DNA of 63,701 nt, filler included, from Candidatus Rokuibacteriota bacterium (GCA_031406795.1; 6 parts of 6 records of this genome joined end to end with filler, not necessarily neighbours in it); one strand, 5' to 3'. Positions 24,779-51,725 are shown, numbered from the whole stretch's first letter. Notes: generated from the letters alone by a model not told the origin. Numbers and translations: made by a program.

Positions 24779-24878
24779 NNNNNNNNNNNNNNNNNNNNNN
24801 NNNNNNNNNNNNNNNNNNNNNNTTAATTAATTAANNNNNNNNNNNNNNNNNNNNNNNNNNNNNNNNNNNNNNNNNNNN
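24779..24878. other. Artificial contig linker
   Basis: N runs + TTAATTAATTAA. Confidence 0.99.
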
Positions 24879-27250
24879 CTGACCGCGGCCGCCGCCTTGG
24901 CCTGCTCGGCGGCGCCGGTGCGCACCCGCCGGGCGATGTCGTCCAGGGCCGAGGCCGCCCCCGCGGCCCGCGAAACCGCCGCGCCGTGCCTGCCGACGGC
25001 TTCCCCGATCGTCTGCACCCGCTCCCCGATCCTGGCCACGGCGGCGGTGATCGCGCGACTGCCCGCGGACTGCTCGGCGACGGCCGAGGCGATGACGGCG
25101 ACGTTCTCCCGGGCCCGCGCCGCGCTCTCGCGGATCAGCTCCAAAGCCCGCCCGGCCTCGCTCGCGCGCACCACCTCGGCGTCGACGCGCCGGCGACCGG
25201 CCTCGATGGTCAGCACCGCCTCCCGCGTCGCGCTCTGGACCCCCGCGACGATCCCGACGATCTCCTTGGTCGAGGCCGCAGTGCGCTCGGAGAGGCGCCG
25301 CATCTGCTGAGCCACGACGGCGAAGCCGTGGCCGCGCTCGCCGGCCTGCGCGGCGATGATCGCGGCGTTGAGCGCCAGCAGCTGCGTCTGGTCGAGGATC
25401 TCCTCGATCACGACGACGAGCCGCCCGATCTGCTCCGAGCGGCCGCCGAGGTCGCCAATCACGTCCCGGGTGTGATGCACCACCGCGCCGAGCTCCTTGA
25501 TCCCGGCCAGGGCGGCGGCGACGGCCTGGCCCCCCTGCGCCGCGTCGAGTTCGGCCTGTCGGGCGTGGCGGTCCGTCGTCCTCCCCTTCTCCTCGACGGC
25601 TGCGATGGCCTGTTCGAGTTGGGCGATGGCAGCGCTGCCTTCCTGCGCCGCAGCGGACAGCTGCTGCAGCGCGGCGTCGACCACGCCGACCGAGGTCCCG
25701 GCCCCCTCGATGGCCGCACCGACATCGCGGGCGACCGCGGAGAAGGATTGCATCTGCTCGTCGATCCCGCGGGAGGCGGCGGCAACCTCCTGCGCCGCGA
25801 CGGCGCTCTCCTCGGCGGTGTCGGAGAGTGAGCGGGCGTTCCTGGCGATGGCGGTGCTGCTGTCGGCGATGCCCCGGACTCCGGCCTGGGCGGTGAGAAT
25901 CGCGCGGGATTGGGACTTCGAACCGGCCCGCACCCGGTCGGCCGCCGTGCGGATGTCGCCCGTGACCCCGCCCAGATCCACGGAAACCTGACGGATGCGG
26001 CACACCATCTCGGCAAGCCGGCCGACGAAGCGGTTGAAGCCGGTGGACAGGTCGCCCAGCTCGTCGTTCGAATGGATCGGCAGGCGCCGGGTGAGGTCAC
26101 CCTGCCCCTCCCCGATGCTCCGCAGACTGCCGACGACCTCGCCGAGCGGCAAAGTGACCGTGCGGGCGACGAAGAGCCCGCCGGCCACCGCGAGCAGGAT
26201 CGCCAGAGCGGCCAGGCCGAAGTTCAGCCGCTCGAGCGCCGCAATCCTTCCGCTGACGCCGCGCCCCCCCTCGAGCGCGAGGGAGGCGGCGAGATCGGCG
26301 TCCGTGCGCACTCCCTGGACGCCGGCGACCACCTGCTTCTCGATGGCGCCGAGACTCTCGCCCGTGCGCCGGCTCGCATCCCGCATCCGGCCGTTGAGGA
26401 TCTCGAGCGCCCGCTCCTGGTCGCGCAGAATCTTCTCCTCGCGGACGATCTGCGCGTCGATGTCCACGTTGATCGAGGTGAGCTGGGGCGGGACCAGGTC
26501 GCGGTAGGCGCGCCGGACCTCCTCCCACTTGGAGGCCATCGCCAGTCCGTTCATGCGCCGCGCGCCATCGAGAAGCCGGACGTTCGCCGCCCGCACCCGC
26601 GCCGCGGCGGCCGCGAACTCCGGCAGCGCCGTGCCGTGCCGGGTGAACACCGGCCCGGCCAGGAACTGTTCTACGGGCGTGTCGCGGACGTCGTCGTAGA
26701 TCAGCTCCACCAGCGAGCTCTGGACGAAGATCATGTTGGCGATCTTCAGGCACCAGGTGGTCACGCCGCGCTTGAGCTCGCCGAGCGCCTGTTCGAGGCC
26801 CTCGTGGCGCGCCTGCCAGATCCCGCCGATCTCGCTCTCCGCGGCGCGCAACTCCCGGTGCGCCTCCCGCAGGCCGGCGAGCGCCTCCTTCACGCCGGGG
26901 ACGCTCTCTTCGAGCTCGCGCGCGGTGGCGCCCGCGAGAAACGCCTCGACCGGGTCGGCCGCCCCGGCGCGAAAGAGCGAGACCTGCGGCTGGTTGGCGA
27001 TCATCGACTCCGCATAGCCGCGCAGCGCCTGATCGAGGGCGAACCGGGTCGCCCGTAGTTCGTCGAGCCGGGAGTTGACCTGCAGGAAGCGCTTCTGGGT
27101 TTCCACGGCCCGGGCCAGGACATCCGTCGAGCTGGTGCTCTCGCGCCTGATGACGCGGGTGGTCCACCGCGAAAGCCCCGCCATGGCGGCGACGATCGCC
27201 GCGAAGAAGAATATGCCGAGCCCGAGCCGGGCCCTGATGGTCAAGCGCAT
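24879..27250 (-). CDS. Methyl-accepting chemotaxis protein, 3' truncated
   Basis: Two TM helices, HAMP (GDLTRRLP...DELG), signalling hairpin [27 protein letters not shown]. Confidence 0.93.
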
Positions 27251-27711
27251 CTGCCGCCCCCGATCGTTGTTGGCTGCCCATGGTCGCGTTCGCGTGAAGC
27301 CAGGTCGGCGATGCCGTCATCCAGGAGTCCGCGCACTTCCGCAACGATTCTGGACAGGCTGCACGGCTTCTGCAGGAACTTGGCGCAACCGGCCGCAAGC
27401 GCGGCCGTGGCGTAAATCTCCGCGGGCAGCGCGGACAGCGCGATGACCGGCAGGTGGAGGAACCGGGCCTGGGCCTTGATTCTGCGGCAGAGGGCGATCC
27501 CGCCTTCATCGGGTACCGAGAGATCCAGCAGGACGGCGTCGACGCGGTGCGCAGACAGCATGATTTCCGCCGCGCGCGTGCTGGTCGCGCTGATCAGGCG
27601 CAGGTCCGGCTCCCTGCCGAAAGCCACCTCATACGCCAGCAGGTGATCCTCCTCATCGTCCACGGCCAGAACGAGGCGGCTTCGTCTTGCGCAACTCCGT
27701 GCCTTCTCCAT
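27241..27711 (-). CDS. Single-domain response regulator
   Basis: VDDEE, LLDLSVP, LSA, LQKP receiver motifs. Confidence 0.85.
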
Positions 27712-27860
27712 CGCTGTTCCCCTTTCACCACGCTCCGGGAGCAAGGATCGCCGCACCGGGTGAGCATGGCGTGAGGACGGCACGAAATTCCCGCTTTCGC
27801 ACTCCCCCCGTGGGAATCTCGGGTCGCGAACCCGGGGAACAGCTGGGTGCAGGCGGTTTG

Positions 27861-29699
27861 TCAGGCGACCTGCGCGATGTCGGCCGCGTCGGCAGCCGCG
27901 TGATGGGCCCGGAAGGCCGTCAGCCCGTCCCGGCCGAGGTAGCGCCCCAGCAGCGCGTCCGGCGCGCGCAGCAGATCGACGTCCAGCAGGCAGTCCCAGA
28001 CCCCGGAGAACTGCGGATCGCGGTTGAACGCCGCCACCCGGCCGGCGAGTCTCAGATACTGCTTGAGCATGATCGGCACCCCCTTGCGGTCGGGCTCCAG
28101 ATCGGCGACGAGCGCCCCGAGCTCATCGAGACCGCCGCAGACGGCGTTCGCCAGCCGGTTGTCCCAGTGCCTGCGCCGGGTGAACGTGATCGGCGTGCGG
28201 GGCCGCACCAGCCGTTCGAGCTCGGGGGCCCGGTGAGCCGCCTGCAGGAAGCCCACCATCAGTTCGCGCGAGATCGGCTGGTAGCTGTCGCTGATGCTCA
28301 CCGGGCCGAAAAGGTGGCGATACCGCGGATTGGCGACGATGAAGCGGCCGATGCCCCGCCAGAGCAGCAGCAGCGCCCCGAAGGATTTCTGATAGTCGGG
28401 CGCCACGAACGAGCGACCGAGCTCGAGCGCCGGACCGAGCTGGCGGAAGAACGCGGGATCGTAGGCGAACAGCGTGTTCGTGTAGAGCCCGCCCGGGCCG
28501 GAAGCGGCCAGCAGCCGGTCGACCTCGCCGAGGCGATACGCGCCGGCGACGGCCCCCGCGCCGCGGTCCCAGAGGATCAGGTGGCGATAGGTGGCGTCGA
28601 ACCGGTCGAGATCCAGCGCGCGGCCGGTCCCCTCGCCGGCGAGGCGGAAGGTGATCTCCCGCAGCCGCCCGATCTCGCGGAGCAATTCGGGGATCTGCCG
28701 GGCCTCGGCGCACCAGACTTCATTCGCCCCGCTGCTGACCAGCAGTCGGTCGGCGGGCAGCGCGGCCAGTTCGGCCGCGAGCAGATTCCGTGGGGCCGCC
28801 GGCGCAACGGGGAGCAGCCGCCTCGTGTCCGGGCGGCTGCCGGGGGCTCCCGCCCCGAGCGCCGGCCGGCTGCGGTCGGCGAGCGCGTAGGTGCGCAGCC
28901 GCAGGGAGGCGACGATCCGCTCGTCGTCCCCCAGCTGCTCGAGCGCGGCGGCCTCCACCGGCGGCCCGACGCGCATCTCGATTTCGCGGCCGCGCTTGTT
29001 CAGCAGTTCGCGCGGCAACAACGCGGTGCGCAGTCCCGGGTGCATGAGCCCGGCCCCCTGGAAAAGCGTGCCGTTCGACCCCGGAAAGTAGACCGGAATC
29101 ACCGCTGCCCCGCTGCCGCGCACGAGGCGCGCCACGCCGCGCTGCCAGGGCGGGTCGGTCACCAGCCAGCGCTCGGCCCGCAGGTGAGCGACCTCGCCGG
29201 CGGGGAAGAGCGCGACAACGCCGCCGCCGGCGAGCCAGAGCCGCGCCTGCCGGGAGGAGGCCGCGTTCGTGCGGGCGGCGGCGACGCCGCCGAAGACATC
29301 CACGGGGAGGATCAGCTCCTTCAGTTCCGGGACGCGCCGCAGCAGGTGGTTCGCGAGGATTCTCAGATCGCCGCGACGTTTCCCGATCGCGGCGGCAAGC
29401 ACGATGCCCTCGACGGCGCCGAAGGGATGGTTGCAGACCACGATCGCGGGGCCCGTGGCGGGGACGCGCTCGAGATCCTCGGCCGACGCGCGCCAGCGGA
29501 TGCCGAGGCGATCGAGCGCGCGGGACGCGAAGGCCGCGCCCACGGCGGTTCCCTGAACCTCGCGGTAGCGGGCGCCGAGTTCGGTCAGCGCCATCAGCCG
29601 CTCGAGCGTGCCGGCGACGATCGGGTGGAACGAGCGGCCCGGCGGCGGCTGCGGGCCGCGGCCGAGGCTGAAGATCGGGTCTGCGTCGTTCGGTCGCAT
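27861..29699 (-). CDS. Bifunctional PlsC-type O-acyltransferase + GNAT N-acyltransferase (OlsF-like ornithine/amino-lipid synthase)
   Basis: N-terminal NHPFGAVEG and FPAGEV; C-terminal EIGRLREITFR..GEGTG..LDLDRFD, GAYRLG, ELGRSFV. Confidence 0.8.
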   Translation of the reverse strand: MRPNDADPIFSLGRGPQPPPGRSFHPIVAGTLERLMALTELGARYREVQGTAVGAAFASRALDRLGIRWRASAEDLERVPATGPAIVVCNHPFGAVEGIVLAAAIGKRRGDLRILANHLLRRVPELKELILPVDVFGGVAAARTNAASSRQARLWLAGGGVVALFPAGEVAHLRAERWLVTDPPWQRGVARLVRGSGAAVIPVYFPGSNGTLFQGAGLMHPGLRTALLPRELLNKRGREIEMRVGPPVEAAALEQLGDDERIVASLRLRTYALADRSRPALGAGAPGSRPDTRRLLPVAPAAPRNLLAAELAALPADRLLVSSGANEVWCAEARQIPELLREIGRLREITFRLAGEGTGRALDLDRFDATYRHLILWDRGAGAVAGAYRLGEVDRLLAASGPGGLYTNTLFAYDPAFFRQLGPALELGRSFVAPDYQKSFGALLLLWRGIGRFIVANPRYRHLFGPVSISDSYQPISRELMVGFLQAAHRAPELERLVRPRTPITFTRRRHWDNRLANAVCGGLDELGALVADLEPDRKGVPIMLKQYLRLAGRVAAFNRDPQFSGVWDCLLDVDLLRAPDALLGRYLGRDGLTAFRAHHAAADAADIAQVA

Positions 29700-29708
29700 G
29701 ATCGCCTC

Positions 29709-30908
29709 CTAAGCGGTTCTGGTCCTGAGAAACGCCGGGAGCCGCGGCCTGAGCCACTCGCCGGTGGACCCCGGGGCGACAACGCGGGTGTCCGGGCCGA
29801 CGTGCAGCCGGTGGCCGCGCCAGGCGACGCGCATCGACACGAGAGGTACGAACCAGAGCGCGCCGATGACGAGATCCTTGACCGGCGCCAGCAGGCACAG
29901 CGGCAGCGGCATCCGCGCGTCGAGCAGGCGGCTCTTCCACGCCGCGCACAGAGCGGCGGCGCCGGCGGCGGCGCCCAGCAGCGCCAGCGAGCGCGACCCG
30001 GGTCGCGCGGCCGCCGCGCAGGCGGCGACGAAGACCGGATTGCCGATCAGTTCGGCGAGGTAGCGCGGGCCGCCGAGCCGCCGCCGCAATTTGCCCCAGC
30101 GGCTGTGGCGGCTGAGGAACCGCTTCGTCCCGCCGTAGATGTTCACGTTCGTGACCGGGTGCGGCGCCAGGACCACGCGCTGCCCCGCACGGTGAAACTC
30201 GCGGCCGATGACGTAGTCCTCGGCCAGAACGTCGCGGAACGCCCGCAGCCCGCCGATCTGCTCGAGGCCGCTCTTGCGGAAGAGCATCGACTTGCCGACC
30301 ACGCACGGCAGCCGCAGGATGCCGAACAGAAAGGCCGTCCCCCCGGCCACGAAGGTGTTCAGGTGCAGGTTCTCGAGCACCGAGCCGACGCTCCTGCCGC
30401 CGCAGCCGCGGATCGGGTTCGTGACGAGGCCGACGCCGGGGGCGAGCAGGGGCCGCACCGTCGCCTTGAGGTAAGCCGGGTCCACGACCACGTTGCTGTC
30501 GCTCACGAGCAGGATGTCGTGGCGCGCGGCGCTGTACCCGGCGCGCATGTTCCTGACCTTCGGGTTTTTCCCCTCCGACGAGCGTGAGACCAGGATGGAG
30601 ACCGGTGTCCGCGGGTTGCGGTCGCGGACCTTGCGGGCCACCGCGAGCGCGGGGTCGTTCGGGCTCTCGAGGCAGAAGATAATCTCGTACGCGGGATAGT
30701 CCAGGCGGCAGAAACTCTCCAGATTGCCGAAGAGATTGTCGTCGAGCCCGGAGAGCGGTTTGAGGATGCTCACGGGGGGCCAGGCCTGCTCCTCCACCGG
30801 GTCGTCGCCCCGGCGGCGCAAAGCGGCGCGCAGCGCCACCGCCTGCAAGAGGAGTCCGGCGATCCCGAGACCGACGACTGGGACCACGATCATCACGCTC
30901 AGATCCAC
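29709..30908 (-). CDS. GT21/GT2 ceramide-glucosyltransferase-like (HpnI-like) glycosyltransferase
   Basis: VSILKPLSG, NPKVRN, SDSN, GKSM, LAED, RHSRW. Confidence 0.88.
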   Translation of the reverse strand: MDLSVMIVVPVVGLGIAGLLLQAVALRAALRRRGDDPVEEQAWPPVSILKPLSGLDDNLFGNLESFCRLDYPAYEIIFCLESPNDPALAVARKVRDRNPRTPVSILVSRSSEGKNPKVRNMRAGYSAARHDILLVSDSNVVVDPAYLKATVRPLLAPGVGLVTNPIRGCGGRSVGSVLENLHLNTFVAGGTAFLFGILRLPCVVGKSMLFRKSGLEQIGGLRAFRDVLAEDYVIGREFHRAGQRVVLAPHPVTNVNIYGGTKRFLSRHSRWGKLRRRLGGPRYLAELIGNPVFVAACAAAARPGSRSLALLGAAAGAAALCAAWKSRLLDARMPLPLCLLAPVKDLVIGALWFVPLVSMRVAWRGHRLHVGPDTRVVAPGSTGEWLRPRLPAFLRTRTA

Positions 30909-30927
30909 GGCTCCCCTCCTTTGGTTG

Positions 30928-31650
30928 TCAGTTCCGAAACAGGGTGATGGCCACGCCTCTGTTCTCGCGCAGACAGCGCTTGATCTCGCCGACGTTGCGC
31001 CCGCACGACAGCAGGGTCTTCCACGAGTACAGGTGGCGCGGCCGGTGGAAGTCGCTGCTGGCGACGTAGGGGTACTTCTTCAGGCCGACCGCGCCGAACA
31101 CGTCGTCGCGGTTGGCGATCTCCCAGGCGTCGATGTGGGGCGCGAAGTGCTGGCGGTTGTTCCAGAAGTACAGGGTGTTGCGGTCGGTGCGGGCCGACAT
31201 GTGGTGCGGGTGGCAGGCGATCACCAGGGCGTCCTGGGCGCGGGCGGCCTCGAAGATCCGCTCGTAGCCCCAGGAGGCGCAGACGTACTCCTGGATGTCG
31301 ATCAGCAGCAGGTGCGCGGAGAGATCGGCGTTGAGATAGTCCTTGGTGATCTCCACGCCGGGGATCACGAGCATGCCGTACGTCTCCAGCGCGCGGCGCG
31401 CTTCCTCCCGCACGGCGGCGAGGTAGGTGTCGAACGTCCGCTCGGTGACCGAGAGCCGCAGCCCGCGGGCGACCCAGCCGATCGCCGTCTCGCGGGTCGC
31501 CACGTGGTCGGTGATGCTGATCGCGTCGAAACCGGCCTGGCCGAAGAGATCCACCACCGCGGCGAGTTCGAGCTGCCCGTCCGAGAAGCGCGTGTGGATG
31601 TGGAAGTCGCAGAGCAGCGGCGCCGCGGCGGACGATCGTTCGGTATTCAT
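30928..31650 (-). CDS. PHP-domain phosphoesterase
   Basis: DFHIHTRFSDG, ITDH, PGVE, CHPH, SDFH. Confidence 0.9.
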   Translation of the reverse strand: MNTERSSAAAPLLCDFHIHTRFSDGQLELAAVVDLFGQAGFDAISITDHVATRETAIGWVARGLRLSVTERTFDTYLAAVREEARRALETYGMLVIPGVEITKDYLNADLSAHLLLIDIQEYVCASWGYERIFEAARAQDALVIACHPHHMSARTDRNTLYFWNNRQHFAPHIDAWEIANRDDVFGAVGLKKYPYVASSDFHRPRHLYSWKTLLSCGRNVGEIKRCLRENRGVAITLFRN

Positions 31651-31656
31651 GGCGGG

Positions 31657-31700
31657 AGGATGCCCCCCGCCCGTTGCGGTACGATGCGGTGACGGTTAAA
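31657..31700 (-). promoter_or_regulatory. Pho-box-like 11-bp repeats plus -10 (CATCCT) upstream of the PHP gene
   Basis: tTTAACcgtca|cCGCATcgtac|cGCAACgggcg-N5-CATCCT-N6-ATG. Confidence 0.45.
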
Positions 31701-32994
31701 TACCGGTGAGGGGGAGGCTGCGGTCGGGGATGCGCAGCGGGCTGCAGCCGCGCTCGCGCACCAGCTGCGCGTAGACCCGGGCGGCGGCGGTCGGCGTGCG
31801 CTCGAGCGTCTCCCAGTCGACCCGGTAGAGGCCGAAGCGTTTGGCGAAGCCGTACAGCCACTCGTACGTGTCGGTGAGACTCCAGTAGAAATAGCCGCGG
31901 ACGTCGATGCCCGCGCGACGGCAGGAGTCGAGCTCGACGACGTGGCGGCCGATGAATGCGGCTTTCCGGGCGCCGTCCTCCGTGGCGACGCCGTTCTCGG
32001 TGACCAGCAGCGGCAAACCGAAGACCGCGGCCTCCTTCAGCACGACGGACAGCCCCGACGGATGCTCCTCCCAACCCATGTCGGTCAGGCCGCGGCGGCC
32101 CCGGTCGCGATGGCAGACTTCGAGGCAGAGCAGCCGGTCGCGTCCGAGGCGAAAGCGGGTGTGGAGCCGCTGGTAGTAGTTCACGCCGACGAAGTCCAGC
32201 GTATCCCTGGTCGGTGCCTCGATCGGCACCGAGCGCGAGAAGGGCAGCGCCAGCCGACTGCGGCCCGTCGTCAGCGCCTCGAGCAGGGAGCGGTTGAAAC
32301 CCTGTCGGCCGAGGTGGGTAAGCAGGCGATCGAGCGGATGCCAGGGCCGATCGGGCGCAAAGACCGCCATGTTGTGGGCGACCCCGACGCGGGCGTCGGG
32401 GACGCGCGCGTGAATGATCGCGTAGGCCCGCGCGTGGGCGGCAAGCAGCGTGCGCAGCGCGGCCAGCAGCGCCGCGGGACTGCGCAGTCCCGGGGGGGTG
32501 CAGCCGACCAGGTAGCCGCCGAGCAGCATGACCATCGGCTCGTTGAAGGTCATCCAGTACCGCACCGCGGGGAGCGCGTTCGCGGCGCGCCGCGCGAACT
32601 CCGCGAAATGCTCGACGGCGGCCGGACTCGTCCACGGGGCGGCGGCGTGCAGCCAGGCCGGGCTCGAGAAGTGGTGCAGCGTGACGACCGGCTCGATGCC
32701 GGCCGCGAGCAGCTCGTCCGTGAGCGCGCGGTAGTGCTCCAGCGCCCGCTCGTCCCAGCGATCCTCCCGGGGCTGAATCCGGCTCCACTCCAGCGAGAAA
32801 CGGTAGGCGTTCAAGCCGAGCTCCCCGAGGAGACCGACATCCTCGCGGAACCGCTCGTAGTGGCCGGTCATCTGCGGCCGCTCCCGGGCGAGCGGGTCCC
32901 AGGTGGCCCAGTCGGCGTCGGGGGCGCCCTCGACCTGAAAGGCCGAGGTGGCGGCGCCCCACAGGAACGGCTTGGCGGGCGTGGGGGCGGACAT
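31696..32994 (-). CDS. Glycoside hydrolase family 1 (beta-glucosidase-like)
   Basis: WGAATSAFQVEG, YRFSLEWSRI, TFNEP, VTENG. Confidence 0.95.
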   Translation of the reverse strand: MSAPTPAKPFLWGAATSAFQVEGAPDADWATWDPLARERPQMTGHYERFREDVGLLGELGLNAYRFSLEWSRIQPREDRWDERALEHYRALTDELLAAGIEPVVTLHHFSSPAWLHAAAPWTSPAAVEHFAEFARRAANALPAVRYWMTFNEPMVMLLGGYLVGCTPPGLRSPAALLAALRTLLAAHARAYAIIHARVPDARVGVAHNMAVFAPDRPWHPLDRLLTHLGRQGFNRSLLEALTTGRSRLALPFSRSVPIEAPTRDTLDFVGVNYYQRLHTRFRLGRDRLLCLEVCHRDRGRRGLTDMGWEEHPSGLSVVLKEAAVFGLPLLVTENGVATEDGARKAAFIGRHVVELDSCRRAGIDVRGYFYWSLTDTYEWLYGFAKRFGLYRVDWETLERTPTAAARVYAQLVRERGCSPLRIPDRSLPLTGI

Positions 32995-33002
32995 GGCGGG
33001 TC

Positions 33003-33057
33003 ACGATGCCCGCCGGGCGCGTTGATCGTGTGAGCCCGACGTCAGGATTTTGCGAGC
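33003..33057 (-). promoter_or_regulatory. Pho-box-like 11-bp repeats plus -10 (CATCGT) upstream of GH1
   Basis: gCTCGCaaaat|cCTGACgtcgg|gCTCACacgat|degenerate unit-N5-CATCGT-N8-ATG. Confidence 0.55.
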
Positions 33058-33130
33058 GTGCCGCTGCGAATCTTGACAACCCCACGACGCTGCCTGAGGA
33101 ACCCGACGCAGAGACCGCGAGGCTCGCCCA

Positions 33131-33283
33131 GCGGCGGTCCATTCCCGCATCCGCATGCAGCCGGGCGACCGGGGCGTCGCGGCCGTTCATCTCTTCCGCT
33201 TCGAGAGCGGCAGGATCGTGGAGTTGCGGGACGTCGGGGAGGCGATCCCCGAGGTCTCCGTCAACACCGCGGGTATGTTCTGA
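33131..33283 (+). pseudogene. 3' remnant of a SnoaL/NTF2-like gene
   Basis: AAVHSRIRMQPGDRGVAAVHLFRFESGRIVELRDVGEAIPEVSVNTAGMF*; in-frame TGA at 33095 and no N-terminal half. Confidence 0.7.
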
Positions 33284-33360
33284 CCAGCCGCTGAAAACAG
33301 GTCGACCGAGGCCCGGGACGGCGCGCCGGAACATATTCTGCCGCTCCCCTGTTGCACCCA

Positions 33361-33388
33361 TTGACACCCGCGCCGCGCGGTGGACAAT
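33361..33388 (+). promoter_or_regulatory. Putative promoter of the molybdoenzyme operon
   Basis: TTGACA-N16-GACAAT. Confidence 0.5.
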
Positions 33389-33480
33389 GACTCCCAGCTG
33401 CAGGTCCCGGGTTCCTTCGGCGCCCGCCATTGGCTGCCCGGGAACGTCTCTCGTTGATGCGACAGCGTGAGGAGGCGAAC

Positions 33481-34107
33481 ATGGACCGGGATCACCCAGA
33501 CAATTCCTGCCGTTGCCGCGGCATCAGCCGCCGGCAGTTCCTCCAGGGCGTGGGCGCGGGCGCCGTGGTCGTCTCGGCCGCGGCGCACATCGGCGCCCGG
33601 GAGGCGAAAGCCAGCGAGGTCCTCCCGGCCGGGGAGATGGCGAAGGTCACCCTGTCGATCAACGGGCGCCGCCACGTCCTGCTGGTGGAGCCGCGCACCA
33701 CGCTGCTGACGGTGCTGCGCGAAGGGCTCGGGCTCACGGCCAGCAAGGCCGGCTGCGAGCGCGGGGAATGCGGCGCCTGCACGGTGCTGATGAACGACGC
33801 CCCGCGCTACGCCTGCCTGACGCTGGCGGTCGCGGCCCAGGGCTTCGAGATCACAACGCTGGAGGGGCTGATGCGCGGCGAGGAACTCGGCCCCGTCCAG
33901 CAGGCCTTCGTCGAGAACGACGCGTTCCAGTGCGGCTATTGCACCCCCGGCCAGATCGTCGCCGTCGAGGGGCTGCTGCGGGCCGTGCCGCAGCCGACCC
34001 TCGATCAAATCCGCATGGGGGTCAGCGGGAATCTCTGCCGCTGCGGCGCTTACGTCAACATCTTCGCGGCGGCGAAACAGGCCGCGGCGCTCAAGCAGAA
34101 GGGGTGA
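33481..34107 (+). CDS. Xanthine dehydrogenase-family 2x[2Fe-2S] subunit with Tat signal (PaoA/YagT-like)
   Basis: SRRQFL Tat motif; GCERGECGAC, QCGYC, NLCRC. Confidence 0.92.
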   Translation: MDRDHPDNSCRCRGISRRQFLQGVGAGAVVVSAAAHIGAREAKASEVLPAGEMAKVTLSINGRRHVLLVEPRTTLLTVLREGLGLTASKAGCERGECGACTVLMNDAPRYACLTLAVAAQGFEITTLEGLMRGEELGPVQQAFVENDAFQCGYCTPGQIVAVEGLLRAVPQPTLDQIRMGVSGNLCRCGAYVNIFAAAKQAAALKQKG

Positions 34108-34112
34108 GGGCG

Positions 34113-36425
34113 ATGGCGGAGAAGGATTATTACACCGAAGGCGTGCCCGTTCCCGAGACGCCGCCGCCGGACGCCGAACCCGCCGCCTGGGGGAAGACCC
34201 ACGCTATCGGCTCGCGACAGCCCCGCGTCGACGCCTACGAGCGCGTCAGCGGCACCGCGATCTACCCCTCCGACATCTGCCTCCCCGACATGCTCTACGC
34301 GGCGATCCTGCGCTCTCCGCACCCCAAGGCGCGCGTAAAGAAGGTCGACGCGACGAAGGCCGCCGGGATGCGCGGCGTGCGCGCCGTGCTCACCGCCGAG
34401 GACCCGCTGGCCCGCAACGTGCGGTGGCCATGGTCCAGCAAGCTGAGCGCGGCCCTCTTCGACGCCACGTGCCGGTTCGAGGGCGAGGCGGTCGCCGCGG
34501 TCGCGGCCGAGTCGTCGGCGCTCGCGCGCGACGCGCTGCGGGCCATCGAGGTGGAGTACGAGGTGCTGCCGCCGCTGGTCGAGTTCGAGAAGGCCCTCGA
34601 CGCCGACGCGCCCCACGTCCAGGAGGGAGGCAACACCACGAACACCGTCGCCTATGCGCGCGGCGACGTCGCCAAGGGCTTCGCCGAGGCCGAGGCCGTG
34701 GTCGAGGAGACTTTCCGCACCGCCTGCGAGATCCACACACCGCTCGAGCCGCACGGCTGCGTCGCCCGCTGGGACGGCGACTCGCTGGTGCTCTGGGAGT
34801 CGACCCAGGGGGTCTACACCATCCAGTCGCGCGTCGCGGAGGTTCTCGGGCTGCCGCTCTCGCGGGTGCGGGTCATCGGCCACTACGTCGGCGGCAGCTT
34901 CGGCAGCAAGCTGGCGCTCGGGAAGTACACGATCATCGCGGCGCTGCTGGCGAAAAAGACCGCCCGGCCGGTGAAGCTTTTCCTGACGCGCGAGGAGACG
35001 ATGCTCTCGGTCGGCAACCGCCCCCCCGCGGTAATGACGCTCAAAGCCGGCGCCAAGAAAGACGGCACCCTGACGGCACTGCAGTTCACGGCGCGCGGCA
35101 GCGGCGGCGCCTACCCGGCCGGCGGGGTCAACTCCGTCGACTGGCTGATCAAGGACCTCTACCTCTGCCCGAACGTGAAGTCGGACATGACCGACGTCTT
35201 CATCAACGCCGGCCCGGCGCGGCCGTTTCGGGCTCCCGGCCATCCCCAGGGGAGCTGGGCGCTGGAGCAGACGATGGACCTGCTGGCGGAGAAGCTCGGC
35301 CTGGACCCGGTTCAGCTGCGGCTGATGAACATCCCGACGGTGAGCCAGGGGCGCGAGGGGGCGCCGCCGTACACCTCGACCGGGCTGCGCGAGTGCATCG
35401 TCCGCGGGGCCGAACTGTTCGGGTGGAGCGAGGCGCGGCTGCGGGCCGAGAGGACGCGCTCCGGCCCCGTGCGGCGGGGCGTCGGCATGGCGGCGGCACT
35501 CTGGATCGGCGGGGCCGGCGGCCCGCCGTCGACGGTCGTGCTGAAGCTCTTCGCCGACGGCAGCGTGAATCTCAACATGGGGGCGAGCGACATCGGCACC
35601 GGGACCAAGACCGTGATGGCGATGGTGGTCGCCGAAGAACTGGGCGTGAAGCCCGAGTTCATACAGATCGAGCACGCTGACACCGGCACCACGCAGTTCG
35701 CCACCGGCAGCGGCGGCAGCAAGACCGTCCCCACCGAGTCCCCCGCGGTGCGGGCGGCGGCGGTGGAGGTCAAGCGGCAGGTACTCGCGCTGGCCGCGGA
35801 GGAACTCAAGGCGCAGGTCACCGCGCTCGATCTTGTCGGCGGGGAGATCGTCGACGAGCGCGACCCGGGCCGCAAGATCAAGCTCACGGCGCTCGAGAAG
35901 CTCAAGAAGCGCGGGGTGATCGTCGGCGTGGGCTACCGCGGGCCGAACCCCGAGGGGAAGGCCGTCAACCCGTTTGCCGCGCAGTTCTGCGAGGTGGAGG
36001 CGGACCTGCGCACCGGTGAAGTCCGGATCGTGCGCTTTCTCGGGGCGCACGAAAGCGGCCGGGTCATGAACCGGGCGACCTTCGACAATCAGGTCTACGG
36101 CGGGATTACGATGGGCATCGGCTTCGCGCTCACCGAGGAGCGCACGCTCGACGCAGGGCAGACGGGGAAGATCTGCAACCGCAATTGGCATGACTACCAG
36201 GTGCCTACGGCGCTGGATGTGCCGCCGACGATCACCTCGGTGGCGATCGACGCGCCGGATGCGCAGGCGAACACCACGGGGGCGAAGGGGCTCGGCGAAC
36301 CGGTGACGATCCCCACGGCGGGGGCCGTCGCGAACGCGGTCGCTCACGCCATCGGGGCGCGGGTCAAAGAAACGCCGATGACGCCGGGTGCCGTAAACCG
36401 CGTCCTCGCGAGCCGGAAGGAGTAA
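34113..36425 (+). CDS. Xanthine dehydrogenase-family molybdopterin subunit (PaoC/YagR-like)
   Basis: GGSFGSK, FRAPG, DIGTG, GAKGLGEP. Confidence 0.92.
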   Translation: MAEKDYYTEGVPVPETPPPDAEPAAWGKTHAIGSRQPRVDAYERVSGTAIYPSDICLPDMLYAAILRSPHPKARVKKVDATKAAGMRGVRAVLTAEDPLARNVRWPWSSKLSAALFDATCRFEGEAVAAVAAESSALARDALRAIEVEYEVLPPLVEFEKALDADAPHVQEGGNTTNTVAYARGDVAKGFAEAEAVVEETFRTACEIHTPLEPHGCVARWDGDSLVLWESTQGVYTIQSRVAEVLGLPLSRVRVIGHYVGGSFGSKLALGKYTIIAALLAKKTARPVKLFLTREETMLSVGNRPPAVMTLKAGAKKDGTLTALQFTARGSGGAYPAGGVNSVDWLIKDLYLCPNVKSDMTDVFINAGPARPFRAPGHPQGSWALEQTMDLLAEKLGLDPVQLRLMNIPTVSQGREGAPPYTSTGLRECIVRGAELFGWSEARLRAERTRSGPVRRGVGMAAALWIGGAGGPPSTVVLKLFADGSVNLNMGASDIGTGTKTVMAMVVAEELGVKPEFIQIEHADTGTTQFATGSGGSKTVPTESPAVRAAAVEVKRQVLALAAEELKAQVTALDLVGGEIVDERDPGRKIKLTALEKLKKRGVIVGVGYRGPNPEGKAVNPFAAQFCEVEADLRTGEVRIVRFLGAHESGRVMNRATFDNQVYGGITMGIGFALTEERTLDAGQTGKICNRNWHDYQVPTALDVPPTITSVAIDAPDAQANTTGAKGLGEPVTIPTAGAVANAVAHAIGARVKETPMTPGAVNRVLASRKE

Positions 36426-36431
36426 GCGACC

Positions 36432-37406
36432 ATGCTGCCGAACTTCGACTATGTGCAGGCGCGCGATCTGCGGGAGGCGGTGCGTCTTCTCGGCGCGGAG
36501 GGCGCCCGGGTCCACGCCGGCGGAACGGACCTGCTCGGCTGTCTGCGGGACGGGGTTTTCGGGGTCCGGACGGTGGTGAGCATCGCCGGGCTCGGCGAGC
36601 TCGCGGGCATCAGCGAACTCGCGGGCGGCGCGCTGCGGATCGGGGCGCTCACCAGCGTCGCCGCGGTGGCGTCGAACCCGATGGTGCGCGAGCGCTACCG
36701 GGCCCTCGCGCAGGCCGCGGAATCGGTGGGAAGCCCCCAGCTGCGCAACCAGGGGACGATCGGCGGCAACCTCTGCCAGAAGCCGCGCTGCTGGTATTAC
36801 CGCGGGGAGTTCGACTGCCTGAGAAAGGGCGGGCAGAAGTGTTTCGCGGTGGAGGGGCAGAACGCCGGCCACTGCATCCTCGGCGGGGCCGACTGCTTCA
36901 TCGTCCACCCCTCCGACATCGCGCCGGCGTTGGTCGTCTTCGGGGCGAGCGTGAAGATCGCGGGGCCGCGGGGCGAACGCTCGCTGCCGGTTGAAGGCTT
37001 CCATATGCCGCCGGGGAAGGACGCGCAGCGAGAGACGATGCTCGAGCCGGGAGAGGTCGTGACCGGCTTCGAAATCCCGGCGCCGCCCCCGGGTTGTCGC
37101 AGCAGCTATCGCAAGGTCCGCTCGCGCCAGTCGTGGGACTTCGCGCTGGCGGGCGTGGCCCTCGCCCTGCGCGTTGAGAGCGGGAAGGTCACTTGGGCGC
37201 GGGTGGCGCTCTCGGGCGCCGCGCCGATCCCCTGGCGGTCGAAGGAGGCCGAGGCGGTCCTCACGGGTGCGACCATCGGCCCGGAGATCGCGAAGAAGGC
37301 CGCCGCCGCGGCGATGGCGGGCGCCAGGCCGCTCGCGAAGAACGGCTACAAGGTGCGGCTCTTCGAAGGATTGATCGCGACGGAGATTCTGAAGACCCTG
37401 GCCTGA
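36432..37406 (+). CDS. Xanthine dehydrogenase-family FAD subunit with [4Fe-4S] insert (PaoB/YagS-like)
   Basis: AGGTDL, PQLRNQGTIGGNLCQKPRCWYYR, C..KGG..C, HPSD. Confidence 0.92.
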   Translation: MLPNFDYVQARDLREAVRLLGAEGARVHAGGTDLLGCLRDGVFGVRTVVSIAGLGELAGISELAGGALRIGALTSVAAVASNPMVRERYRALAQAAESVGSPQLRNQGTIGGNLCQKPRCWYYRGEFDCLRKGGQKCFAVEGQNAGHCILGGADCFIVHPSDIAPALVVFGASVKIAGPRGERSLPVEGFHMPPGKDAQRETMLEPGEVVTGFEIPAPPPGCRSSYRKVRSRQSWDFALAGVALALRVESGKVTWARVALSGAAPIPWRSKEAEAVLTGATIGPEIAKKAAAAAMAGARPLAKNGYKVRLFEGLIATEILKTLA

Positions 37407-38677: not shown

Positions 38678-38710
38678 CTTCACGGGATTCTCACGATGGA
38701 CTCACACCGG
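38678..38710 (+). promoter_or_regulatory. Pho-box-like triple 11-bp repeat
   Basis: cTTCACgggat|tCTCACgatgg|aCTCACaccgg. Confidence 0.65.
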
Positions 38711-38783: not shown

Positions 38784-39002
38784 ATGTACAACAGCGGCAA
38801 CCCGAGGCCGGGCACGATTGACCAGCGGGCGCAACCGCAGTGTCCATTCTTCAACCACGCGGCCGCAATTTGCCAGGCCGCGCTCACCCCCCGCACGCCG
38901 CCCCGAAAAACCCGGGCGGCGGCGTGCGGTTGCGGCGACTTCGAGGACTGCACCACGTATCTGGTGCGACTCCTCAATCGGCCGCTCGCCCGTCACCGCT
39001 AG
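38784..39002 (+). CDS. Small Cys-rich hypothetical protein (72 aa) upstream of phoB
   Basis: SD GGAGGA; CPFF-x6-C...CGCGDFEDC..YL. Confidence 0.65.
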   Translation: MYNSGNPRPGTIDQRAQPQCPFFNHAAAICQAALTPRTPPRKTRAAACGCGDFEDCTTYLVRLLNRPLARHR

Positions 39003-39029: not shown

Positions 39030-39095
39030 TCTCGCGGGGCAGCAACGCGATTCTCGCGCGCTGCTAACACGGCGCTCACACGCCTGGCCGAGGAT
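39030..39095 (+). promoter_or_regulatory. Pho-box-like five-unit array plus -10 of phoB
   Basis: tCTCGC|aGCAAC|tCTCGC|gCTAAC|gCTCAC at exact 11-bp period, then N5-GAGGAT-N7-ATG. Confidence 0.65.
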
Positions 39096-39102
39096 TCGGG
39101 GC

Positions 39103-39843
39103 ATGAAAAGAACTGAGAAGACCCTGAAGTCACCGTCGAAGCCCCCATCGCGGGAGCGGATCCTGGTCGTCGAGGACGAAGAGGACATCCTCGAGCTGAT
39201 CCGCTACAACCTCAACCGCGAGGGCTACCGCGTCAGCACCGCGACCTCCGGGGAGGATGGGCTGCGCGCGGCGATGCGCGAGAAGCCCGACCTGGTCGTC
39301 CTCGATATCATGCTCCCCGGCATCGACGGGATCGAGGTCTGCCGCCGCCTCAAGGCCGACCCCCAGACCCGGTACATCCCCGTGGTCATGGTCACGGCCA
39401 AGGGCGACGAGGCAGATGTGGTCACCGGCCTGGAGCTCGGCGCCGACGACTATCTGACCAAACCCTTCAGCCCCAAGGTCCTTATCGCGCGGCTGCGCGC
39501 CGTCATCCGCCGGCGCGAACAGGAGGGCGTCAAGGACGCCAAGGAGCCGATTCAGCGCGGCGAGATCCTCATCCACCCCGGCCGGCGCGAGGTGCTGGTC
39601 GGCGGCAGCCGGGTCGCTCTGGACCTGACCTTCACGGAGTTCAACATCCTTCACCTGCTGGCTTCGCGGCCGGGGTGGGTCTTCACCCGCGCGCAGATCG
39701 TGGACGCCGTGCGCGGCTACGACTACAACGTCACCGAGCGCTCGGTGGACGTGCACGTCGTCGGCCTGCGGCGCAAGCTCGGAGCGCACGGCGAACTGGT
39801 CGAAACCGTGCGCGGCGTCGGCTACCGATTCCGGGAGGCCTGA
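39103..39843 (+). CDS. phoB: OmpR-family response regulator, PhoB/PhoP-like
   Basis: VEDEEDI, LDIMLPG, GADDYLTKPF, winged helix ETVRGVGYRF; pst context. Confidence 0.88.
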   Translation: MKRTEKTLKSPSKPPSRERILVVEDEEDILELIRYNLNREGYRVSTATSGEDGLRAAMREKPDLVVLDIMLPGIDGIEVCRRLKADPQTRYIPVVMVTAKGDEADVVTGLELGADDYLTKPFSPKVLIARLRAVIRRREQEGVKDAKEPIQRGEILIHPGRREVLVGGSRVALDLTFTEFNILHLLASRPGWVFTRAQIVDAVRGYDYNVTERSVDVHVVGLRRKLGAHGELVETVRGVGYRFREA

Positions 39844-39849
39844 CCGGGC

Positions 39850-41646
39850 ATGACCCGCAAGCGGCTGCTCTGGCACCTGCTGCCCTGGTACCTGCTTGCG
39901 GCGGCGGCCTGCCTCGCCGGGCTGATCGCATACTCCAGCCGCGCCTTCACCGCTTTCTACGTCGGCCAGCGCGAGCGCGACCTCTCGGCCCTGGCGCGGG
40001 TGGCGGCCTTCGAAATCGAGGACCGCACCCACGGGGGCGTCGAGACTCCGGAGGGCTTCTCCGCCCTGGAGACCCTCTGCCGCGACCTGGGCCGCGCCGC
40101 CGAGGCCCGCCTGACGGTCGTCGACCCGGCAGGGCGGGTGCTCTGCGACTCGGAAAAGGAACCCGCCGCTCTCGAGAACCACGGCAGCCGACCCGAAATC
40201 CGCGAGGCTCTGGAAGGGCGCGCCGGCACGGCAATGCGGTTCAGCTCCACCCTCGAGGAAAACCTGCTCTACGTCGCCGTGCCCTTCCCCTACGGCGAGC
40301 GGCGGGGCGCGGTGCGCTACGCAGTCTCGGTGGCGTCGCTGCGCACTGCCCTCGGCGGCTTGCGCCGCGACCTGGTGCTCGGTGCTTTCGCGGCCCTGGC
40401 CCTCGTGATCCTCGTGAGCGCGCTGCTCGCCCGGCGCCTCGCGACACCGCTGCGCGAGTTGCGTCTGGGGGCGGCGCGCTTCGCGCATGGCGAGTTCTCC
40501 CGGCCGCTCTCGATACCGGCTTTCGAGGAGTTCGCCGTCGTCGCCGAGGAGATGAATCACATGGCCGCCCAGCTTGACGAGCGCATCCGCGGCGAGATCC
40601 GGCAGCGCCAGGAACTCGAGGCGGTGCTCTCGAGCATGGTCGAGGGCGTGCTGGCGTTCGACCGCGAGGCGAACCTGATCAGCCTCAACGGCGCCGCGGC
40701 GCGGCTGCTCGGCGTGCGGGCCGAGCAGGTCCGGGGCCGCAGCATCCAGGAGGCCGTCCGCAACCCGGAGCTGCAGGAGTTCGTCGCACTCACCCTCTCC
40801 CAGGCCGTGACCCAGGAACGCGAGATCTCCTTCTTCGACGACGCGGGCGAGCGCTTCATCCAGGCGCACGGCACGGGACTCACGGACGCGACGGGCAACC
40901 GCATCGGGGCTTTGATCGTGCTCAATGACGTCACCAGCATCCGGCGGCTGGAGCGGATGCGCCGGGACTTCGTCGCGAACGCCTCGCACGAGATCCGCAC
41001 GCCGGTGACCTCGCTCAAGGGTTTCATCGAGACCCTCCAGGACGGGGCGATCGACGACCCGGAAGCGGCGCGGCGCTTCCTCGCGATCATGAAGAAGAAC
41101 GCCGACCGGCTCCACGCCATCATCGAGGACCTATTGAACCTCTCGCGGATCGAGCGCGAGGCCGAGCGCGGGGAGGTGCCCCTCGAGCAGGCATCGCTGC
41201 GCGGGATCGTGGAGGAGGCGCTCGAAGCTTCCGACGGCGTCCTTCAGGCGAAGGAGATCCGGGTCGAGCTGGACTGCCCGAGCGGCCTGCTGGTGCGCGC
41301 GAACCCCTCGCTGCTGGTGCAGGCGATCGTCAACCTCGTCGACAACGCCGCGAAGTACAGCGGAGCCGGCAGCGCGGTGACCATCGTCTGCCGGGAGACC
41401 GAGCGGGGGGTGGCGCTCGCGGTCCACGACAGCGGGCCCGGGATTCCCCGCGAGCACCTGCCGCGGCTCTTCGAACGCTTCTACCGGGTCGACAAGGGGC
41501 GCAGCCGCAGCCTCGGCGGCACCGGCCTCGGCCTCGCGATCGTCAAACACATCGTGCAGGCGCACCGCGGCGAGATCACGGTCGAGAGCGAGCCCGGCAA
41601 GGGGAGCACCTTCACGATCCTGCTGCCCAAGGCGACGGTGAAATAG
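39850..41646 (+). CDS. phoR: Phosphate regulon sensor kinase (sCache-HAMP-PAS-HK)
   Basis: ENHGSRPEI, RRDFVANASHEIRTP, FERFYRVDKGRSRSLGGTGLGL. Confidence 0.9.
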   Translation: MTRKRLLWHLLPWYLLAAAACLAGLIAYSSRAFTAFYVGQRERDLSALARVAAFEIEDRTHGGVETPEGFSALETLCRDLGRAAEARLTVVDPAGRVLCDSEKEPAALENHGSRPEIREALEGRAGTAMRFSSTLEENLLYVAVPFPYGERRGAVRYAVSVASLRTALGGLRRDLVLGAFAALALVILVSALLARRLATPLRELRLGAARFAHGEFSRPLSIPAFEEFAVVAEEMNHMAAQLDERIRGEIRQRQELEAVLSSMVEGVLAFDREANLISLNGAAARLLGVRAEQVRGRSIQEAVRNPELQEFVALTLSQAVTQEREISFFDDAGERFIQAHGTGLTDATGNRIGALIVLNDVTSIRRLERMRRDFVANASHEIRTPVTSLKGFIETLQDGAIDDPEAARRFLAIMKKNADRLHAIIEDLLNLSRIEREAERGEVPLEQASLRGIVEEALEASDGVLQAKEIRVELDCPSGLLVRANPSLLVQAIVNLVDNAAKYSGAGSAVTIVCRETERGVALAVHDSGPGIPREHLPRLFERFYRVDKGRSRSLGGTGLGLAIVKHIVQAHRGEITVESEPGKGSTFTILLPKATVK

Positions 41647-44568: not shown

Positions 44569-44612
44569 TTTAACCGCGGGCTCATGAATTCCTAACACTC
44601 CAGCCCCATTCT
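44569..44612 (+). promoter_or_regulatory. Pho-box-like triple repeat plus -10 of pstS
   Basis: tTTAACcgcgg|gCTCATgaatt|cCTAACactcc-N5-CATTCT. Confidence 0.7.
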
Positions 44613-45650: not shown

Positions 45651-45681
45651 CCCCAGCCGGAACCCGCATCGCGAATAACGG

Positions 45682-45708
45682 GGGGCGGGGAGCAATCCCC
45701 GCCCCTTT
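45682..45708 (+). terminator. GC-rich hairpin after pstS (terminator or mRNA-stabilising stem)
   Basis: GGGGCGGGGA-GCAA-TCCCCGCCCC-TTT. Confidence 0.7.
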
Positions 45709-45762
45709 GCTTCGCGGGCGGGCGCTGGCATCATATCGAGGAGCCAGGAACAGATGAAACGG

Positions 45763-45827
45763 GCAGGCAGATCAAGAGGTCCCAGATGCGAGGCCATGCA
45801 GCACGTGGGCCTTCTTCAGCCGCCTGC
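45763..45827. mobile_element. 65-bp internally deleted copy of the 18799 element (inverted)
   Basis: GCAGGCAGATCAAGAGGTCCCAGATGCGAGGC...TGGGCCTTCTTCAGCCGCCTGC matches both ends of the reverse-complemented 18799 element. Confidence 0.6.
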
Positions 45828-45851
45828 CAACCCCTGAGACCGGCGAGGAGC

Positions 45852-50089: not shown

Positions 50090-50107
50090 GGAAGGAGCGC
50101 ACGAGCG

Positions 50108-50974: not shown

Positions 50975-50996
50975 TGCCCCAAAGAGAGAGGATGCG

Positions 50997-51625: not shown

Positions 51626-51725
51626 NNNNNNNNNNNNNNNNNNNNNNNNNNNNNNNNNNNNNNNNNNNNTTAATTAATTAANNNNNNNNNNNNNNNNNNN
51701 NNNNNNNNNNNNNNNNNNNNNNNNN
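51626..51725. other. Artificial contig linker
   Basis: N runs + TTAATTAATTAA. Confidence 0.99.

Follow-up and report, generated by a model that had tools for sequence, protein, structure and literature searches.

A candidate Pho-controlled PHP-GT21 gene pair with a GH1 companion and its possible role in phosphorus-free lipid remodelling

What kind of unit is formed by genes for a glycosidase, a phosphoesterase, a glycosyltransferase and an acyltransferase that lie head to tail, and what would such a unit do? The question is raised by positions 27861-33057 of a 63,701-nucleotide stretch of DNA from a Candidatus Rokuibacteriota bacterium (GCA_031406795.1; hereafter the window, six records joined with filler), in which open reading frames (ORFs) for a GH1 beta-glycosidase, a PHP-family metallophosphoesterase, a GT21 glycosyltransferase and an OlsF-like bifunctional acyltransferase follow one another. 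The initial annotation had taken them for a single PhoB-controlled operon that both liberates phosphorus and builds or turns over phosphorus-free membrane lipids. The ORF listing confirmed the four co-oriented genes and their intergenic gaps of 45, 19 and 9 nt (Table 1), and Pfam confirmed the domain identities (GH1, PF00232; PHP, PF02811; GT21, PF13506; PlsC plus GNAT, PF01553 and PF13444). Phosphorus-free lipid remodelling as a general idea fits the comparative evidence given below, and the Pho-regulon link was supported by the pho genes and the Pho-box-like repeats found near the genes in relatives. We propose, as a reading about evenly poised between right and wrong, that a Pho-controlled PHP-GT21 pair converts phospholipid to beta-glycosyl-diacylglycerol, with GH1 as an editing enzyme and the OlsF-like protein as an independent amino-lipid add-on.

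Gene order in relatives was examined by searching a profile of 18 PHP homologues against contigs of one genome per species, which yielded at least 509 confirmed matches; the best 80 loci were used (all from metagenome-assembled genomes, MAGs, 76 of them with Nitrospirota-lineage labels), and the four window proteins were mapped onto them by tblastn. GT21 lay directly downstream of PHP on the same strand in 77 of the 80 loci (42-56% identity to the window GT21), the gap being 12 nt at the median as against 19 nt in the window. GH1 was found in 69/80 loci (45-54% identity) and directly upstream of PHP in 45/80. A full-length OlsF-like gene, on the other hand, followed GT21 in only eight of the 65 loci whose DNA extended 2 kb or more beyond GT21. 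Thus the conserved unit is, by its gene order, a tight PHP-GT21 pair with a GH1 companion, while the OlsF-like gene, being present after GT21 in so few loci, appears to be a lineage-specific accessory; the co-conservation that had been expected of all four genes held for the first three and failed for the fourth. The nearest homologues of the window PHP (88%) and GT21 (78-83%) were from MAGs labelled Candidatus Methylomirabilia.

The single four-gene operon survived in part. The complete order recurs in two loci (L001 and L062) and, with a 2.4-kb insert, in a third (L053), and no terminator-like site fell within the three intergenic gaps when 27000-33600 was scanned for terminators and promoters, a scan that was uninformative overall (4 terminator-like sites versus 2.3 expected). 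On the other hand, the gap before PHP in relatives had a median of 119 nt and, in 48 of the 73 cases, reached 80 nt or more, so one operon of four genes is not the general rule; PHP-GT21 usually seems to have a promoter region of its own there. In at least seven further loci a split OlsB/OlsA-like gene pair lay nearby instead of a fused OlsF gene. One such pair (L075:14910-16489, minus strand) scored 182 and 156 bits to ornithine-lipid models, both below the cut-offs, and stood on the strand opposite to the module in this one orientation-checked locus. Amino-lipid genes were therefore recruited to the neighbourhood of PHP-GT21 more than once. No publication describing the four-gene combination was found in the literature search, in keeping with the initial annotation, which knew of none.

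Is the unit linked to phosphate control? PhoB-, PhoR-, Pst- or PhoU-like genes occurred within 38 of the 80 loci and, of the 54 loci that were 15 kb or longer, 16 had pst or phoU genes. In 14 loci the end of a PhoR-like kinase gene lay no more than 2 kb upstream, on the same strand, and in 16 loci pst or phoU genes came downstream; GH1 in relatives is often placed behind phoBR. When all locus ORFs were clustered and 27 of the 30 commonest families annotated, these included OmpR-type regulators (35 loci), two families of PstS-like binding proteins (24 and 8 loci), Pst permeases (20), PstB-like ATPases (15), PhoU (13), PsiE (8) and PhoH2 (7). Such counts of pho genes appear to be far above chance, as judged from how little of a genome is taken up by pho genes and without a random-locus control.

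The upstream DNA of the relatives pointed the same way. A search for words recurring at fixed spacing before PstS genes brought out TGTAAC(A), with an interval of exactly 11 bp; no comparable word emerged at 8-10 or 12-14 bp. With a Pho-box pair defined as two TGTAAC words at 11-bp spacing and up to two mismatches, pairs were present upstream of PstS in 26 of 33 regions, of PHP in 26 of 51, of porin genes in 5 of 9, of PsiE in 4 of 8 and of GH1 in 6 of 36, versus 49 of the 599 regions upstream of other genes. The difference between PHP and other genes was highly significant (Fisher p = 1.7e-13), and pairs spaced 9, 10, 12 or 13 bp apart were found before PHP in only 1-4 of the 51 regions. From this enrichment, PHP-GT21 is a predicted Pho-regulon unit in the relatives.

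Repeats of this period are also present in the window itself, at 33024-33056 before GH1 and at 31695-31710 before PHP, as the initial annotation had reported in likening them to those before phoB and pstS. The three units before GH1 open with CTCGC, CTGAC and CTCAC (CTNNC or CTNAC type), and units 2 and 3 (33030-33045) fit CTMAC-N6-CTMAC with one mismatch; the PHP pair shares bases with the stop codon of GH1. Without mismatch this pattern matched three times in the window versus 0.19 expected (three or more matches in 0 of 100 shuffles): twice before phoB and once at 27760-27775, just downstream of the OlsF-like gene. The nine one-mismatch matches were not placed at random: eight lay in or abutting intergenic DNA, which makes up 10% of the window, and three of the four matches not used for defining the pattern were in or beside the cluster on the gene strand (33030-33045, 31695-31710 and 27760-27775). 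When the intergenic DNA of the window was screened without bias for exact pentamers recurring at 11 bp, CTCAC was counted only twice, the window alone being too little DNA for discovery. An ACCGCA repeat in the GH1-PHP gap was rejected as a Pho box owing to its 10-bp spacing (not 11) and its different word. We therefore take the repeats before GH1 and PHP as real sequence features for which the support within the window alone is modest, and the stronger support for reading them as predicted Pho boxes comes from the relatives.

What, then, would PHP do beside a glycosyltransferase? Its PHP domain scored just above the Pfam cut-off (28.6 versus 26.4 bits), yet ten residues (H17, H19, D24, H49, E100, H113, H147, H149, D200 and H202), which we take to be the metal ligands, were invariant across 18 sequences, and a full-length profile match was obtained to TM0559 of Thermotoga maritima (PDB 2anu; E = 2.7e-76; 43-48% identical when aligned by Foldseek). 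An AlphaFold model of PHP, built on the 18-row alignment, was poor (mean predicted local distance difference test score, pLDDT, 64.4) and served only for the Foldseek search, where 2anu was the first match. PHP has no hydrophobic segment and is soluble; none was found in the OlsF-like protein either.

Longer homologues tied this PHP family to glycosyltransferases. There were 584 of them with E <= 0.001, and among the best 120, inspected via the precomputed Pfam column, 113 carried GT28 or MGDG-synthase domains. Four such fusions that were scanned against Pfam had MGDG_synth at 15-181, the GT28 C-terminal domain at ~227-334 and PHP from ~405. The GT28-PHP fusions (P0245-P0364; ~660 aa) are common in records labelled Verrucomicrobiota and appear to be uncharacterised; their top NCBIfam model was diglucosyl-diacylglycerol synthase, below cut-off, and the PHP part of one of them was 48% identical to the window PHP over 237 residues without a gap. 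One further longer homologue was a GT2-PHP fusion. Judged by these fusions and by gene order, the TM0559-type PHP family is a partner of predicted lipid glycosyltransferases of two unrelated folds, GT21 and GT28. The GT28 partners are diacylglycerol glycosyltransferases by family, and their fusion to PHP points to diacylglycerol, rather than an amino lipid, as the acceptor of GT21.

A physical tie was suggested by structure prediction. The docking model of GT21 with PHP reached an ipSAE interface score of 0.71, while the best of three controls reached 0.00; among reference cases, 116 of 157 solved complexes and 2 of 215 mismatched pairs attained this mark, an approximate yardstick as our own alignments were used. 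The docking runs had at least 86% of contacts in common, with a partner pLDDT of at least 86, and in each family some residues of the contact patches (GT21 54-61 and 86-97; PHP 37-40, 91-92 and the C-terminus) do not vary, among them GT21 54-61 and PHP 37-40. A memorised solved complex seems unlikely, because sequence searches of the PDB gave only stand-alone relatives of either protein. Thus the model supports binding of PHP to GT21. From contact residues at the starts of barrel strands, we infer that PHP would bind through the barrel face opposite its metal site. PHP had been described at the outset as a phosphorus-liberating enzyme: the release of phosphorus is retained in our proposal, but instead of acting freely PHP probably does so as a subunit docked on the glycosyltransferase.

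The other proteins are compatible with a glycolipid module. GT21 matched its Pfam family strongly (3.2e-46; 157.4 bits versus a cut-off of 21.7) and has three hydrophobic segments (1-30, 186-210 and 333-357). GT21 enzymes named Pgt are described as making beta-linked di- and tri-glycosyl-diacylglycerols under phosphate deprivation, as carrying a predicted Pho box and as accepting diacylglycerol or ceramide (PMC3972451, PMC8231724). We propose that the window GT21 is a beta-glycosyl-diacylglycerol synthase.

GH1 (Pfam, 1.2e-75) is without signal peptide or membrane segment, and its top NCBIfam model was BGL (TIGR03356; 278.1 bits, below the cut-off of 478.5). Its closest solved relative was 1vff (9e-84, full length), and the NEP and TENG motifs, which hold the catalytic glutamates of GH1 enzymes, were aligned. 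The 1vff protein is the membrane-bound beta-glycosidase BGPh of Pyrococcus horikoshii (PMC1934363), which is reported to favour long-alkyl glucosides and whose relatives cleave steryl glucosides (PMC4687101). The window GH1 falls within the BGPh subfamily. In plants, the GH1 protein SFR2, a galactolipid:galactolipid galactosyltransferase, is described as remodelling glycolipids by transglycosylation (PMC4011751). A synthase of beta-glycolipids beside a beta-glycosidase for hydrophobic aglycones would make a coherent pair.

In the OlsF-like protein, PF19576/PF01553 spans residues 71-275 and PF13444 residues 346-447. OlsF was the top NCBIfam model (NF052615; 377.1 bits versus a cut-off of 620), aligned over residues 28-588 of 612 and model positions 26-569 of 570, and the NHPFG..E and FPxG motifs were invariant across seven OlsF-like sequences. 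The order of domains agrees with that described for OlsF, an N-terminal O-acyltransferase followed by a C-terminal N-acyltransferase, and expression of the Vibrio cholerae OlsF (VC0489) is reported to depend on PhoBR (PMC12971839). The likeness to OlsF drawn from the PlsC plus GNAT architecture therefore stands by domain order and full-length alignment, although below the equivalog cut-off. We propose the protein to be an amino-lipid synthase, whose product would probably be ornithine lipid. An operon of esterase, glycosyltransferase and OlsF in Desulfovibrio alaskensis was rejected as a precedent: OlsF (Dde_3661) and Agt (Dde_3613) have well-separated locus tags there (PMC5193443).

These features can be assembled into a scheme. 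Under low phosphate, phosphorylated PhoB would activate GH1, and probably PHP-GT21-OlsF, from direct repeats with an 11-bp period. The soluble PHP would be held at the membrane surface by the cytoplasmic domain of GT21 and strip the phosphorylated head group or the phosphate from a glycerophospholipid, in a phospholipase-C-like or phosphatidate-phosphatase-like reaction that would free phosphorus and leave diacylglycerol. GT21 would at once glycosylate this diacylglycerol from a uridine diphosphate (UDP)-sugar, yielding beta-glycosyl-diacylglycerol, and the cytoplasmic GH1 would trim, turn over or redistribute the beta-linked sugars. Separately, the OlsF-type acyltransferase encoded behind GT21 would make an acyloxyacyl amino lipid, probably ornithine lipid. 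The genes with their domains and conserved order, the neighbouring pho genes, the repeats, the fusions and the docking score are results of the analysis; we infer all substrates and products, the direction of the GH1 reaction and the regulation in this scheme, and the substrate of PHP is its chief uncertainty. A lipid esterase is preferred for PHP because of a precedent, PlcP, and because the output of the module must start with diacylglycerol.

Several observations weigh against this scheme. We know of no PHP-family enzyme that acts on lipids, and after 2anu the next structural neighbours of PHP in the Foldseek search were RNase AM and nucleotide phosphatases. Since GT21 and GT28 have the UDP-sugar donor in common no less than the diacylglycerol acceptor, the GT28-PHP fusions would equally fit a phosphatase of UDP or of nucleotides. 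GT21 is about equidistant from HpnI (29-32% identity) and ceramide glucosyltransferase, no sequence labelled Pgt was returned by tblastn of GT21 against plasmids or by the protein search, and none of the GH1, GT21 and OlsF-like proteins reached a curated NCBIfam equivalog cut-off. As for regulation, the frequency of TGTAAC pairs upstream of GH1 was not different from that of other genes (Fisher p = 0.12), and the one-mismatch CTMAC-N6-CTMAC pattern was not enriched in the window (9 matches versus 6.45 expected; nine or more in 25 of 100 shuffles). The loci compared were the best 80 of at least 509, all MAGs and nearly all of Nitrospirota, and the lineage of the window lies outside this DNA sample. 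TM0559 itself is listed only as a stand-alone PHP domain with no assigned function in the available text (PMC3666897).

The points on PHP are those on which the strongest alternative draws, that GT21 makes a Pho-controlled glycolipid while the docked PHP hydrolyses a soluble phosphoester and not a lipid. One candidate substrate is the UDP released by the transferase, whose removal would lift product inhibition and return phosphate to use; other candidates are a nucleotide bisphosphate and a phosphorylated head group set free by a separate phospholipase. Besides the fold neighbours, weak NCBIfam matches of PHP agree with this, and both glycosyltransferase partners of PHP, GT28 and GT21, use UDP-sugars. 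A gene for a YfcE-family (Metallophos_2) phosphodiesterase occurs in the neighbourhood of 10 of the 80 loci, directly after GT21 in one of them (L059:5831-6547), and could encode the separate lipid-cleaving enzyme, but it is absent from the other 70. Cytoplasmic UDP is normally recycled by kinases. Moreover PlcP, the sole established precedent of a phosphoesterase encoded directly before a diacylglycerol glycosyltransferase, is described as a phospholipase C (PMC9239053). A soluble ester as the substrate of the docked PHP is thus unlikely on balance, if still the most serious competitor.

Alternatively, GT21 might act on a hopanoid, like HpnI (bacteriohopanetetrol glucosamine glycosyltransferase), or on ceramide, the module then decorating those lipids with no replacement of phospholipid. 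HpnI was indeed the top NCBIfam model for GT21 (TIGR03472, 247.9 bits) and ceramide glucosyltransferase its top solved relative (1.4e-38), the source annotations name the GT21 family ceramide glucosyltransferase, and Pgt enzymes are reported to accept ceramide too (PMC3972451). However, the HpnI score was below the cut-off of 310, identity to annotated HpnI genes was only 29-32%, and no family of hopanoid or sphingolipid biosynthesis was found in the window or among the 27 annotated neighbour families of the 80 loci; identification of GT21 as HpnI was rejected on these grounds. The fusion of the partner PHP family to GT28 of the MGDG-synthase type argues further against such acceptors, which we consider improbable.

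Still less survives of the model put forward in the initial annotation, in which GT21 glycosylates the amide-linked lipid of the OlsF-like enzyme and GH1 reverses the step. The tight gaps, with no terminator-like site between the genes, and the same gene order in L001 and L062 speak for it. However, the OlsF-like gene follows GT21 in only 8 of 65 loci, as against the 77 of 80 in which PHP and GT21 adjoin, at least seven further loci have a split pair of amino-lipid genes, on the opposite strand in L075, and the GT28-PHP fusions point to a diacylglycerol acceptor, which leaves a glycosylated amino lipid very improbable. Equally improbable is a soluble beta-glucoside (a compatible solute or oligosaccharide) made by a synthase and a phosphatase, as for glucosylglycerate or sucrose, and catabolised by GH1. 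Pathways of this kind typically pair a glycosyltransferase with a phosphatase, and soluble glucosides are common substrates of GH1 enzymes. However, the three segments of GT21 are strongly hydrophobic and its relatives are lipid glycosyltransferases, GH1 is closest to a membrane-bound enzyme preferring hydrophobic aglycones, and the fused GT28 partners are of lipid type (MGDG or diglucosyl-diacylglycerol synthase).

A broader reading can be put forward, tentatively and as one joint claim whose truth is rather doubtful: i) the TM0559-type PHP proteins would be unrecognised phospholipid head-group phosphoesterases and a fixed subunit of GT21 or GT28 diacylglycerol glycosyltransferases; ii) their genes would adjoin that of GT21 in Nitrospirota and Methylomirabilota, while in Verrucomicrobiota they would be joined to GT28 in one protein, channelling diacylglycerol without its free release; and iii) the conserved GH1 would move sugars among glycolipids, as a bacterial equivalent of plant SFR2. 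Replacement of phospholipids by glycolipids or amino lipids is a major bacterial means of survival when phosphorus is scarce, and the use of plcP transcripts to mark phosphorus stress in the field has been suggested (PMC9239053). If the proposal is true, a second, independently evolved route of phosphate-sparing lipid remodelling would exist in nitrite oxidisers as well as in other bacteria that abound in soil and freshwater, and surveys based on PlcP would miss the Nitrospirota, Methylomirabilota and Verrucomicrobiota that use the unrecognised enzyme pair. TM0559, a structural-genomics orphan solved in 2005, would gain a function and the PHP fold a lipid substrate, and the physically coupled esterase and transferase would represent a new solution to the handling of free diacylglycerol. 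In the literature search, which had subscription journals outside its scope, no link of a PHP or TM0559-type protein to lipid remodelling, GT21 or GT28 was found, nor a description of the PHP-GT21 pair as lipid-replacement enzymes.

Table 1. Coordinates of the gene cluster, the candidate Pho boxes and the pho genes in the window
Feature	Position	Strand	Remarks
GH1 beta-glycosidase	31696-32994	-	432 aa ORF
PHP-family metallophosphoesterase, TM0559 type	30928-31650	-	240 aa ORF
GT21 integral-membrane glycosyltransferase	29709-30908	-	399 aa ORF, GTG start
OlsF-like bifunctional acyltransferase	27861-29699	-	612 aa ORF
Candidate Pho box before GH1	33024-33056	-	three tandem 11-nt units, 30-62 nt 5' of the GH1 ATG
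Candidate internal Pho-box pair CTCACCGGTATTTAAC	31695-31710	-	45-60 nt before the PHP ATG
Pho-box-like repeats before phoB	38679-38705, 39053-39079		same word type as the GH1 site
Pho-box-like pair before pstS	44581-44596		CTMAC-N6-CTMAC type
phoB-like and phoR-like genes, presumed regulators	39103-41646	+	NCBIfam
pstS-pstC-pstA-pstB-phoU	44661-51677	+	reference Pho operon, same contig

Elsewhere in the window, the presumed regulators scored below their NCBIfam cut-offs (PhoB TIGR02154, 237.9 versus 296.2 bits; PhoR TIGR02966, 321 versus 334.2 bits), and the PstS-family (TIGR02136, 246 bits), PstB (387 bits) and PhoU (209 bits) proteins scored above theirs. A PhoH2 gene is also on the contig. 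The pstC and pstA ORFs (45786-50089, plus strand) are 880 and 750 aa as called and overlap, with transporter domains only in their C-terminal thirds. A cysteine-rich ORF of 72 codons with its own ATG (38784-39002, plus strand) lies between the distal repeats and phoB; since no more than 24 nt separate the end of the proximal repeat from the phoB ATG, phoB may have a leaderless transcript or depend on the distal site for its transcription. The exact pair at 27760-27775 stands 49-64 nt before a gene for a 155-aa receiver-only response regulator (27245-27711, minus strand), which is followed by one for an 807-aa methyl-accepting chemotaxis protein (24827-27250, minus strand); these genes with the pair (24827-27775) may represent phosphate-regulated chemotaxis. 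A receiver-only gene family, not necessarily that of the window, occurs in 20 of the 80 loci of relatives, where arsenate-reductase-like genes (11/80) and GH77 4-alpha-glucanotransferase genes (9/80) were also seen.

Divergent from GH1, across a spacer of 435 nt with a sigma-70-like promoter match at 33361-33388, lies a three-subunit molybdopterin oxidoreductase of the xanthine dehydrogenase family (33430-37406, plus strand), for which no link to the lipid genes was seen in relatives. The window also holds several N runs (masked stretches or gaps), all outside 27861-33057. The ORF of a glutamate synthase large subunit matches only residues 966-1481 of the family model; because it abuts an N run, the gene is probably interrupted by that run rather than truly truncated.

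How does the module compare with known systems? The OlsF proteins of Serratia, Flavobacterium and Vibrio cholerae (VC0489) share with the window protein the two-domain order and a full-length match to the model; the window protein differs in its score (377 versus 620 bits) and in its placement behind a glycolipid module, for which no description was found in the available text of the sources. GH1 resembles BGPh as its closest solved relative, and BGPh acts on glucosides with hydrophobic aglycones; neither BGPh nor SFR2 is known within a Pho-linked bacterial module. SFR2 transglycosylates, while GH1 may be a hydrolase or a transglycosylase, between which sequence alone does not tell. Among PHP proteins, TM0559, a product of structural genomics, belongs to the same subfamily as the window PHP. 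Of the GT21 enzymes, HpnI is the top model yet below cut-off and without hopanoid genes nearby, and Pgt of Mesorhizobium loti and Agrobacterium tumefaciens is likewise GT21, induced by phosphate deprivation, with a predicted Pho box and beta-linked products; no PHP or GH1 partner of Pgt is mentioned in the available text, and its likeness to the window GT21 is at the level of the CAZy family.

The closest parallel is PlcP-Agt, an adjacent phosphoesterase and diacylglycerol glycosyltransferase of which the former makes diacylglycerol and the latter glycosylates it (PMC9239053). As described for Sinorhizobium, SAR11, roseobacters, Pseudomonas and Methylosinus, a metallophosphoesterase gene likewise stands directly before a lipid glycosyltransferase gene, and that pair is linked to phosphate limitation. 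PlcP is calcineurin-like and related to LpxH, and Agt belongs to GT4, whereas the pair in the window combines a PHP fold with GT21; because of these folds, the window system is an analogue of PlcP-Agt and not a member. It is further set apart by its conserved GH1 and by the predicted binding of PHP to GT21.

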